64,000 nucleotides of DNA from an uncultured Acidobacteriota bacterium. Lineage in GTDB: Bacteria > Acidobacteriota > Thermoanaerobaculia > UBA5066. The stretch's first letter is position 1. Each line of letters starts with the position of its first letter. This document shows positions 52,997 to 55,667 of this stretch, piece by piece. The translations under genes were made by a program, and so were the position numbers. The DNA lies in assembly GCA_963779415.1 (NCBI GenBank), contig CAVZYA010000002.1:1216001-1280000 (forward strand), read 5' to 3'. The notes under the pieces were generated by a model. It worked only from the letters and a program-made list of their open reading frames with translations. It was not told the DNA's origin and made no database searches.

Positions 52997-55667
52997 GTGC
53001 CCGTTCAGCAGCCGATCCACGAGCCCCACAAGTTCAAGACCGTCCGCCTCGTCTCCTTCCCGTCGCTCGAGGAGCGGAAGCGAAACCTGGCCCGCGCGCA
53101 TTTCAACGTCTTCAATCTCATGCCCTCGGAGATCGTCTTCGACATGGTCTCGTTCGGCACGAGCGCGGTCAGCCAGGAGCAGCTCGCCGGCGAGTTCGTC
53201 GGCGACGAGGCGTACGCCGGGGCGCGCAACTTCGAGGCGCTGGCCGAGACGGTGACCCGGGTCCTGGGCCACACGTACCTCTGCCCGACGCACAACAGCC
53301 TCGGCGCGGTGAAGCTGATCGTCGCGACGCTGACGCCGAAGGGCTCCCTCATCCCGAGCAACGCCCGGGGCCGAGTCGACGTCCACGCGCCGCGCGGCAT
53401 CGAGATCGCCGACGTGAGGGACCGCGCCGGGACCGTCTTCACGGGCAACTTCGACGTCCGCCGCCTCGAGGAGCTGCTCGGGGCGCGCCGGGCCGCGATC
53501 ATCGGCATGCAGTGCTTCGCCGACGGCCAGCATCCTTTCAGCCTCGAGAACCTGAGAGCCATCCGGGTCGTGGCGGACCGCCACGGCCTGCGGCTCGTGC
53601 TCGACGTCTCCCGGGTCCTCGAGAACGCCTGGTACATCCAGAGGCACGAGCCGGGGCACGCGGACCGGTCCATCGCCGACCTCGTGAAGCTGATCTCCAA
53701 GACGGCGCACGTCGTCCTCCTCGACGGGGCGCAGGACGCCAAGTGCGCCACGGGGGGCCTTCTGGCCACGGACAACCCGGCGGACCACGAGCGCTTCATG
53801 AACGAAGTCGTCGTCTACGAGGGGCTGCACACGTACGGCGGCATGTCGGGCCGGACGATGGAGGTCCTCTCGCGGGGTCTCGCCGAGATGTGCGACGAGG
53901 CCGAGGTGCAGTGGGTAATGCACCAGACCGAGGCGTTCGCCTCCCGGCTCCGGGACGCCGGGGTTCCGCTGGAGCGGGGGTGCGACGGCGCCTACCTGCG
54001 GGCCGCCGAGATCCTCCCTCACGTGAAGCTCCACCCGGCGCACGCGCTCGCGAGCGCGCTCTACCAGACGTCCGGCGTCCGCGCGCTCGTGACGGGCCTC
54101 GTGGGGCGCGACGACCTCCTGCCGGTCCAGATCCCGCGCCTCGCGATGACCTCCGCGCAGCTCGACGAGGTGGCGGATGCGGTGGCCGACCTCTTCCGCC
54201 AGCGGGACCGCGTGGCGCCGCTCGACGTCGAGGTCGGAGGAACCTGGCACGACGAGCTGAAGTTCCGCTCGATCTTCGCGGACCTCCGTCCGCACGAGCT
54301 GGACTCCGCGCCGTACGTCGTTCACACGGTCGAGCCCATCGTCCGGACCGACCGGGGAGAGCGGGAGCGGGCGATCCGCCGGGCCGGCTGGAACACCTTC
54401 CTCCTCCGCTCGGCGGAGGTCACGATCGACCTCCTGACCGACTCGGGGACGACGGCCATGAGCACGGACCAGTGGGCCGCCTACGAAGGCGCCCGCCCCA
54501 CGCCGGCCACGAGCGACGCCTACGTCCGCTTCGTCGAGGCGATGCGGGAGATCTACGGCTACCAGTACATCCTGCCGACCCACCAGGGGCGGGCGGCGGA
54601 GCAGATCCAGAGCGAAGTCCTGATCCGGCCGGGGCAGTTCGTGCCGGGCAACATGTACTTCACCACGACGAAGGTCCACCAGGAGCTGGCCGGGGGCACC
54701 TTCGTCGACGTCATCGTGGACGAGGCCCACGACCCGCAAAGCGAGTTCCCGTGGAAGGGGAACGTCGATCTCGCCAAGCTGGACGCCCTCGTGAGAGAGC
54801 ACGGCGCCGAAAAGATCGCCTACGTCTCGTTCGAGTTCTCGGTGAACATGGCCGGCGGCCAGCCGGCCAGCATGGACAACCTTCGCGAGGTCTACGCCTA
54901 CTGCCGGCCGAGGGAGATCCCGGTCCTCTTCGACGCGACCCGGGCGGTCGAGAACGCCTACTTCATCCAGAAGCGGGACCCGCGGTACGCGAAGGCGCAC
55001 ATCCGGGACATCGTGCGGGAGATGATGGCCCACGGCGACGGCTGCACCGTCTCCGGCAAGAAGGACTTCCTCATCAACATCGGCGGGCTCCTCGCCTTCA
55101 AGGACAACGAGTCCTGGGCGCGGGCGGCCGAGGAGAAGCTCCGCGTCTACGAAGGGGGGGTGCGGGACGGCGGGCTCGCCGCCGGGGACCTTGCCGCGAT
55201 GGCCCGGGGCGTGGAGGAGATGCTCGACGACCGCTACATCCGGTCGCGCGTCGAGCAGGTCGCCTTTCTGGCGGACCGGCTGACGGCGGCCGGCGTCCCC
55301 ATCGTCGTTCCGGTCGGCGGCCACGCCGTCTTCCTCGACGTCAAGCGGTTCCTGCCGCACGTCGACCAGGACGAGTACCCGGCCCAGCGCCTCGCGGCCG
55401 AGATCTACCTCGAGACGCGGCGTAAGGGCGATGGAGCGGGGGAACGTCTCCAAGGGACGCGACGCCTCGGGGAAGAACCACCGTCCGGCCCTGGAGCTGG
55501 TCCGCCTCACGATCCCGCGGCGCGTCTACTCCAACGACCACATGAAGGCCGTGGCCGACGGGATCGCGCGGCTCTACGAGAGACGGAAGGAGATCAAGGG
55601 GCTGCGCTTCGTCTACGAGCCGCCGACCCTCCGCTTCTTCCAGGGGCGCTTCGAGCCGGTGGCGTGA
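52997..55667 (+). CDS. Tandem-duplicated tyrosine phenol-lyase/tryptophanase-family protein (~889 aa; one extra base near 55418)
   Basis: Two beta-eliminating lyase modules; C-half has [44 protein letters not shown]. Confidence 0.88.

Follow-up and report, generated by a model that had tools for sequence, protein, structure and literature searches.

Fold-type I enzymes that use pyridoxal 5'-phosphate (PLP) are textbook symmetric dimers with two shared active sites. What becomes of such sites when two subunits are joined in one chain and each has lost catalytic residues that the other retains? This question is raised by a gene in a 64,000-nt stretch of DNA (positions 1,216,001 to 1,280,000 of contig CAVZYA010000002.1, assembly GCA_963779415.1) from an uncultured Acidobacteriota bacterium. 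The whole stretch is called the window; positions are numbered along it, and motif numbers are those of tyrosine phenol-lyase (TPL) residues unless marked aa. An earlier note, made from the sequence alone, had described 52997..55667 as a single-chain, pseudo-dimeric TPL with one composite active site. We consider it about two-thirds probable that the gene encodes a fused two-unit TPL-like chain with one composite site, and that, for an extra C in the window copy, an assembly error is more probable than a real mutation. The observation in the note proved real but incomplete and is partly confirmed, and its interpretation is partly supported.

The open reading frame (ORF) that begins at GTG 52997 on the plus strand continues to a stop at 55831 and, as assembled, encodes 944 aa. 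It holds two full-length beta-eliminating-lyase domains, and the homology runs without a gap across their junction. From around aa 808 to the stop at 55831, however, the sequence in the 52997 frame is unrelated to these enzymes. The elements of the gene are as follows.

52982..52987, plus strand: Shine-Dalgarno-like GAGGAG, 10 nt before the GTG start, read directly
52997..54307, plus strand: N-half (aa 1-437), a diverged TPL-like pseudo-subunit, aligning to TPL residues 6-435
53201..53221, plus strand: GDEAYAG (aa 69-75), with Glu69 and the general acid Tyr71, placed by alignment to solved TPL
53723..53737, plus strand: DGAQD replacing SGKKD (S254D, K256A, K257Q); the Schiff-base lysine is gone
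53816..53842, plus strand: YEGLHTYGG (aa 274-282), with Leu at 288 and the Tyr291 equivalent
54308..55417, plus strand: C-half up to the frame break (aa 438-807), the putative TPL-type catalytic domain, profile positions 3-370
54503..54505, plus strand: Pro503, at the Tyr71 position of the C-half
55052..55066, plus strand: SGKKD (aa 686-690), in which Lys689 is the PLP lysine (TPL Lys257)
55166..55168, plus strand: Asp724, at the Tyr291 position of the C-half
55418..55418, plus strand: extra C, a 1-nt insertion that moves the frame by +1
55419..55667, plus strand: last 82 codons and stop of the C-half in the +1 frame, TIGR02618 profile positions 371-450, 109 bits
55437-55439 and 55503-55505, plus strand: Arg381 and Arg404, which lie with Phe448/449 inside the +1-frame tail
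55420..55831, plus strand: stretch where the 944-aa ORF reads on out of frame, without similarity to the family

Both halves exceed the gathering cut-off (27 bits) of Beta_elim_lyase (PF01212), the N-half with 86.6 bits and the C-half with 208 bits. On the TPL profile TIGR02618 the N-half scores 238.7 bits (positions 2-434) and the C-half 508 bits (positions 3-370), and the whole 807-aa piece reaches 742 bits, which is both halves summed. The HMMER alignment to solved TPL has an E value of 1e-58 for the N-half and of 2e-123 for the C-half (TPL residues 7-374). On NF009709, with a cut-off of 285, the N-half lies slightly below (280.1 in the window, 276.8 in an intact relative) and the C-half above (447.3 in the window, where the frame break shortens it, and 551 in the intact relative). 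PF01212 was the sole family matched in the Pfam scan, the glycine-cleavage P-protein family being absent among the matches, and the NCBIfam matches were all TPL/tryptophanase models, except for a weak GntG-family aldolase (22.4 bits against a cut-off of 230). Neither a sigma-70-like promoter nor a terminator was found in 52200-56000, and an Rfam scan of 50000-58500 gave no match.

Two separate genes were considered and rejected, because the junction contains no stop and a frame of ~889 aa is conserved. A true stop between the halves had been named in the earlier note as grounds for abandoning its proposal, and none is there. Its single chain of ~890 aa stands as regards the two full domains, the stop-free junction and the length of ~889 aa in relatives, but not as regards the window itself, where the frame is broken at 55418. 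The segment 52997..55667, treated there as one frame, is 2671 nt long, which is not a multiple of 3, and the frameshift had been crossed without remark.

Residues were counted in a full-length alignment of 118 sequences, namely the window protein and 117 homologs of 870-940 aa. These homologs, 69-92% identical, are 117 of the 120 listed best database matches, three having been left out for their length. The halves were aligned by HMMER to the solved TPLs 1c7g and 9j3u, and the numbering was checked at Lys257 and Tyr291. Unless another count is given, each residue named in this and the following paragraph is found in 118/118 sequences. The N-half keeps D68, E69, A70, Y71, H97, D214 and R217, as well as E286, G287, Y291, G292 and G293, and it carries S216. 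It is changed to Q257, D254, N98, D185 and L288, and further to A256 (117/118), L100 (R100L, 116/118) and P404 (115/118); Asp50 is deleted, and Ser51 is mostly replaced by aromatic residues. In the window, two of its motifs are altered, to HNSL from HQGR and to DMVS-FGT from DLLTDSGT.

The C-half keeps T49, D50, S51, G52, T53, H97, Q98, G99, R100, F123, T124, N185, D214, T216, R217, S254, K256, K257, D258 and N262, which are all 20 of the PLP-pocket residues tested, plus R381, R404, F448 and F449. Its position 71 is P in 100 sequences, S in 10, A in 5, T in 2 and V in 1, and Tyr in 0/118; position 291 is D throughout, position 288 is G, N, S, R or A, and position 69 is A, P, S, T or N. In TPL the general acid Tyr71 belongs to every subunit, whereas here it is confined to the lysine-less N-half. 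The PLP site that defines TPL (Lys257, Asp214, Arg217, Gln98-Gly99-Arg100 and Ser254) is complete in the C-half but not in the N-half, which has Q257, L100, N98 and D254. Across 39 diverse sequences there is no variation in the motifs GDEAYAG, Y280-G-G, SxKKD, HQGR and TDSGT. The two halves have lost reciprocal sets of residues, each retaining what the other lacks, and this complementary loss is conserved far beyond chance in the close family. All motifs quoted in the earlier note are present and align to 1c7g and 9j3u as it had claimed, the alignment of the halves to TPL that it proposed as a check included, and the complementary loss of catalytic motifs that it reported extends to the whole close family.

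Purifying selection acts on both halves. In Nei-Gojobori comparisons of 10 genes (45 pairs), the median ratio of nonsynonymous to synonymous substitution rates (dN/dS) comes to 0.28 in the N-half and 0.18 in the C-half, and between the window and its closest relative the values are 0.22 and 0.15, respectively. The pseudo-subunit is somewhat more relaxed, yet clearly constrained.

TPL and tryptophanase share their fold, and they can be told apart by the signature Y71-F123-T124-K257-x288-Y291-R381-R404-F448, which sorts three groups. Canonical single-domain proteins of TPL type read YFTK[LF]YRRF, those of tryptophanase type YFDKFY[IVL]RH, and the C-halves of the fused core group xFTK..RRF. The tyrosine-specific residues Thr124, Arg381 and Phe448 occur in the C-half in 118/118, those of the window at 381 and 448 lying beyond the frameshift. 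The same genome also encodes a stand-alone 458-aa paralog (G000:C1:1496011-1497378; L002:1357-2733) of tryptophanase type, with Tyr71, D124, Lys257, Tyr291, I381 and H448; a stand-alone gene of this type is also present in most related genomes. Judged by these residues, the C-half is of TPL type and not of tryptophanase type, as had been proposed before from the same contrast of motifs. The equivalog cut-off of TIGR02618 (720.7 bits) is, however, reached neither by the C-half of the intact relative L009 (624.9) nor by that of the window (508 + 109, in two frames), nor by the N-half (238). The C-half is therefore filed as TPL-like and not as certified TPL.

As general background to these enzymes, Glu69 would help in cation binding in trans, and the TYGG loop with Tyr291 would be lent in trans. 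For other residues the roles are documented. As the literature describes it, Tyr71 of TPL is the general acid and Arg381 the general base, while Thr124 fixes the phenol OH, to which Arg381 also binds (PMC10170061, PMC9262865), and the active site is placed at the catalytic-dimer interface (PMC11512013, PMC10170061). In the sister enzyme, tryptophan indole-lyase (TIL), of Proteus vulgaris, Tyr-72* is described as supplied by the other chain of the catalytic dimer and as the proton donor to the leaving group (PMC11301627); the lending of the GDEAY tyrosine to a partner subunit, which the earlier note had given as known, is thereby seen in a relative. Given the roles of Tyr71, Arg381, Thr124 and the lent loops, the C-half pocket and the N-half loops would together form a complete site. 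The mirror site, which has no lysine, phosphate cup, carboxylate arginine or either tyrosine, would be dead.

The gene belongs to a widespread family of proteins of ~889 aa that originated by tandem fusion of two TPL-like subunits. The C-terminal unit would be the catalytic one: it has the lysine for PLP, the Asp partner of the pyridine N, the phosphate cup and Arg404, which binds the carboxylate, along with Thr124, Arg381 and Phe448/449, which are TPL-specific. The N-terminal unit would act as a pseudo-subunit in which no Schiff base is possible, and would lend the Tyr71 and Glu69 loop and the Tyr291 loop. From the residues retained we infer that the two units of a chain pack like the catalytic dimer of TPL, with a corresponding N:C geometry, so that the intrachain pair would be the catalytic-dimer pair. 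Each chain would then have one composite site, presumably cleaving L-tyrosine, or a phenolic compound closely related to it, into phenol, pyruvate and ammonia, and a dead mirror-image site, a stoichiometry likewise deduced. One composite active site per chain is the best reading for the core group, and it is well supported by the conservation and by the known trans action of the GDEAY tyrosine.

The fold of the single chain is predicted with confidence. For the intact homolog P0003 (92% identical), AlphaFold2, given 39 sequences, reached a mean predicted local distance difference test score (pLDDT) of 90.3 and a predicted template modelling score (pTM) of 0.88. The value of ~90 in the linker blocks suggests that the model packs its two units in a defined way. 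Model residues ~430-889 superpose on tryptophanase 8sbg, the best match, with Z 55.9 and a root-mean-square deviation of 1.5 A over 454 aligned residues.

Several observations count against one composite site per chain, or against its substrate. When the whole P0003 model was searched against 48,161 chains, the 50 matches listed were all single-domain and all covered the C-half only. Among the public-run matches listed there was no RNA run with the stretch. The identity of the substrate is not guaranteed, because the C-half alone stays below the TPL equivalog cut-off even in L009. Finally, Lys257 is kept in the N-half of 4/11 distant representatives (P0132, P0136, P0138 and P0139), two of which (P0132 and P0139) have a C-half Tyr71 as well.

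Catalytic pairs might instead form between two chains, C:C (and N:N). The C-half would then be a Tyr71-less beta-lyase for substrates whose leaving group is good, and the N-half would serve only as a scaffold or for regulation. That Tyr71 replacement in TPL affects substrates unequally, as mentioned in PMC3870968 with reference to earlier work, would be in keeping with this. We nevertheless regard such pairing as quite unlikely, since it leaves unexplained both the invariant Glu69, Tyr71 and Tyr291 in a domain without a site (118/118; 39/39) and the tyrosine-specific Thr124, Arg381 and Phe448/449 of the C-half (118/118), which are important for phenol elimination.

Another alternative concerns the second site, which in the suggestion of the earlier note was freed for regulation or a new ligand. 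The N-half pocket might be alive and, with non-covalently bound PLP or some other small ligand, serve in regulation or as a second catalytic site. N98, D185, D214, S216, R217, D254 and Q257 are each present there in 118/118 of the close family, although invariance inside a family of ~70% identity is weak evidence, and at 257 the wider family varies among Q, E and D. A similar idea has been put forward, in a passage of PMC7259800, for the Gln-bearing N-half of GLDC, and distant members of the present family retain a complete N-half site. In the close family, however, the phosphate cup is dismantled (R100L in 116/118, S254D, Asp50 deleted, Ser51 mostly aromatic), Arg404 has become Pro in 115/118, and the partner loops of the C-half have neither Tyr71 nor Tyr291; a live pocket there seems unlikely. 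A particular form of this idea is that the lysine-less pocket, closed by the Pro71/Asp291 loops of the C-half, is a conserved ligand site that controls the single live site. We hold it to be doubtful, but if it were true, the protein would be a naturally evolved, intramolecularly allosteric tyrosine phenol-lyase, and the family would record a path from a two-site fused dimer to one catalytic plus one regulatory site, with the distant members that have lysine in both halves as the two-site stage.

The distant members also delimit the one-site arrangement. At E <= 0.001, 4675 relatives were found among 1.84 billion cluster representatives, and the best 150 of these 4675 include 11 further full-length two-unit representatives, 39-51% identical. 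The N-half has both GDEAYAG and the Tyr291 loop in all 13 sequences aligned (13/13); Tyr291 occurs in the C-half of 0/13. SGKK, HQGR and Arg404 persist in the N-halves of P0132, P0136 and P0139, as do Lys257 and Arg404 in that of P0138. The C-halves of these four have no Arg381, and Phe448 is also missing from all but P0136; this subgroup may consist of two-site enzymes of another specificity. With lysine kept in some distant N-halves, one site per chain is not the rule for the whole fused family. Conservation of the asymmetry, a check that the earlier note had proposed, was thus borne out in 118/118 close sequences but not in the 4/11 distant ones, and the family grades from possibly two-site forms to a fully complementary core group that includes the window.

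The fused gene is present in one open frame in 9/40 related genomes (G007, G011, G012, G013, G014, G016, G017, G020 and G021). Of 400 other genomes sampled evenly over the phylum, 10 carry the N-half type, always within an open frame of at least 842 aa. Judged by source names, close homologs come from Acidobacteria, Eisenbacteria, Planctomycetes, Dokdonella and Thermomonas, and databases label the fused proteins 'tryptophanase'. In a FastTree phylogeny (midpoint-rooted and without support values), which bears no claim on one versus two fusion events, the core C-halves stand beside canonical TPL-type sequences and the N-halves form separate deep clades. One N-half, from a different family of the same phylum (G348:C2:727646-728953), is 90% identical to that of the window, closer than most copies from the same family, which hints at horizontal transfer.

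Among N-half-like proteins of 240-765 aa, which number 691, the 120 listed showed no recurrent two-gene (alpha + beta) form. Those 120 mostly come from singleton clusters, many are 'partial' or on short contigs, and the weakest are single-domain lyases of ~460 aa. Stand-alone N-half genes are unsupported: the candidates P0129, P0126 and P0134 end abruptly inside the C-half, and P0239 runs into out-of-frame sequence.

Is the window copy then a working gene? TPL profile positions 371-450, with MERG (Arg381), RLTIPRR (Arg404) and LRFF (Phe448/449), are encoded in the +1 frame, and this tail is 94% identical to residues 807-889 of P0003. In a five-way DNA alignment with the intact copies L009, L010 and L011 and the broken copy of G003, the single indel of the window gene is the extra C at 55418; blastn against L009, L015, L011 and L013 gives the same lone gap at this base, which is absent from 9/9 related genomic copies. 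The phase of the G+C content at third codon positions (GC3) departs from the 52997 frame at ~55396. As assembled, the product would be without Arg381, Arg404 and Phe448/449 and should be inactive.

The site is covered by one contig in each of three metagenome runs, X1, X2 and X4 (depths 4.06, 10.2 and 9.02, respectively), and is uncovered in X3. All three contigs skip one base at 55417/55418; they are contigs of relatives and cannot decide for this organism. The contig pieces matched to the window are mostly <95% alike to it, and the source sample was not found among the public runs, the best of which contains a fraction of 0.26 of the words sampled. A programmed ribosomal frameshift or a transcriptional slippage site at 55418 would agree with the intact and conserved downstream frame. 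This seems extremely improbable and was rejected: ACG-C-GGC holds neither a homopolymer nor a slippery motif, none of the 9/9 related copies needs a shift, and the covering contig in each of the 3 runs is without the base.

Two further observations point to the quality of the assembly. A scan of the whole window for GC3 phase switches found only two changes of coding phase without a stop, one at the lyase site and the other at ~38218. The latter lies on the minus strand (37932-38499), where a GGDEF diguanylate-cyclase gene changes frame immediately ahead of its GGEEF motif: ORF 37932..39212 contains PF00990 positions 1-84, and positions 79-161 fall in the frame of ORF 35794..38499. The second observation is that the copy in G003, a genome of the same genus assembled, like the present one (G000), in 3 contigs, has 10 internal single-base insertions and 0 deletions relative to three intact copies. 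Taken together, the two long-contig assemblies show 11 insertions and 0 deletions in the fused gene. The G003 copy (L026, G003:C1:560500-571200, gene at ~4028-6710) has no insertion in common with the window, and its flanks are non-homologous.

The window copy might also be a true and very recent pseudogene, in which the extra C is real, the product is inactive and the gene is being lost in the genus. The frame break does stand in the assembly, and rpoC, rpoB and two dnaE-type genes, 15 kb in all, are each unbroken in this genome, which speaks against an artefact. Within the genus the gene is intact only in G007, broken in G003 and not found in G001, G002, G004, G005 and G006, that is, in 5/7 of the other genomes; this absence would also fit gene decay in the lineage, although those five genomes are only 65-92% complete. 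A regulator that adjoins the gene in most relatives' loci (see below) is missing from the whole window, and an IS200-like transposase lies 1.7 kb downstream. Set against this are the count of a single lesion, the tail that is 94% identical to a homolog, a dN/dS that is not relaxed, an unrelated gene in the same 64 kb that is also frame-broken, and the excess of insertions over two long-contig assemblies, which resembles a mode of sequencing error. An assembly error is favoured by the second broken gene and by the insertions-only pattern of G003, as well as by the conserved tail, the unrelaxed dN/dS and the uniqueness of the extra base to this assembly. As the source of the extra C, we put an assembly error at about two to one over a recent pseudogene. 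The window copy is to be annotated as frameshifted until reads settle the base.

The neighbourhood of the gene differs between the window and its relatives. A divergent Lrp/AsnC-type regulator lies directly upstream in 6/9 relatives' loci (G013, G012, G014, G021, G017 and G011), as would suit a catabolic gene responsive to amino acids. The window lacks this regulator; the best tblastn E value over 64 kb is 0.21. The regulators and the neighbours of the window gene are the following.

L019:5370-5879, L020:5348-5917, L021:8729-9286: Lrp/AsnC regulators
L022:8738-9289, L024:3737-4264, L023:5389-5871: Lrp/AsnC regulators
50785-52227, plus strand: PF03601 (Cons_hypoth698) membrane protein, 480 aa
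52282-52566, plus strand: 94-aa protein without a Pfam match
52662-52886, plus strand: DUF2905 small membrane protein, 74 aa (PF11146, 89 bits)
57357-58391, minus strand: IS200-like Y1 transposase (PF01797, 41 bits), 1.7 kb downstream of the lyase gene

Less than 1.5 kb from the gene, the 9 relatives' loci contain no match to any of four window neighbours, namely the PF03601 membrane protein, the 94-aa protein, a DinB-like protein and a 360-aa downstream ORF. A conserved operon was rejected on these grounds.

The nearest family is TPL/tryptophanase, and the closest known design is that of the glycine decarboxylase P-protein. Both halves are homologous over their full length to TPL (EC 4.1.99.2; Citrobacter freundii, Erwinia herbicola; PDB 2ez1, 1c7g, 9j3u), and the fused C-half keeps its Lys257, Lys256, Asp214, Arg217, Gln98-Gly99-Arg100, Ser51-Gly52, Phe123, Thr124, Asn185, Ser254, Asn262, Arg381, Arg404 and Phe448/449. 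TPL is, however, a homotetramer of identical subunits of ~456 aa with four sites, whereas the fused protein has two diverged units in 889 aa, and its Tyr71 and Tyr291 are only in the lysine-less unit and absent from the catalytic one. Tryptophanase, or tryptophan indole-lyase (TnaA; PDB 1ax4, 8sbg), has the same fold, and its composite site with Tyr-72*, as described in PMC11301627, is resembled by the proposed one; the specificity residues of the fused C-half are of TPL type, in contrast to those of tryptophanase and of the tryptophanase-type paralog in its own genome (Asp124, His448).

Serine palmitoyltransferase LCB1/LCB2 is also a fold-type I pair, with its site at the interface and a PLP lysine missing from one of the two subunits, but it belongs to a different family and is encoded by separate genes in most organisms. 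The GLDC P-protein is described in PMC7259800 as an unusual fold-type I enzyme made as one chain of >1000 aa or as an alpha-beta pair, in which the two units share homology and the lysine is confined to the C-unit, Gln standing in its place in the N-unit; the alpha-beta form belongs to some bacteria and archaea. The units of the fused TPL-like protein are likewise homologous, the C-unit alone having the Lys and the N-unit a Gln at this position, a likeness of design only: GLDC belongs to another family, and its chemistry is decarboxylation with lipoyl transfer. Nor was a counterpart of the alpha-beta GLDC met with among the 120 listed proteins mentioned above.

Among the papers listed by full-text literature searches there was none on a fused TPL or tryptophanase. 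In a paper on tryptophanase diversity the words fusion, fused, duplicat, 'two domains', 'tyrosine phenol' and Acidobacteria are all absent (PMC8537960), and a 2026 tryptophanase mining study retained only sequences of 400-600 aa (PMC12980246), a length filter by which fused proteins are missed in such database mining.

TPL is described in PMC10170061 as an industrial catalyst for L-DOPA, and a single-chain, one-site form of it could interest enzyme engineers. The fused protein would also be a natural single-chain system for dissecting the contribution of each subunit to a shared active site. As a second independent case, in the TPL/tryptophanase family, it would show that fusion with complementary decay recurs, with the same Lys-to-Gln change and with graded intermediates.

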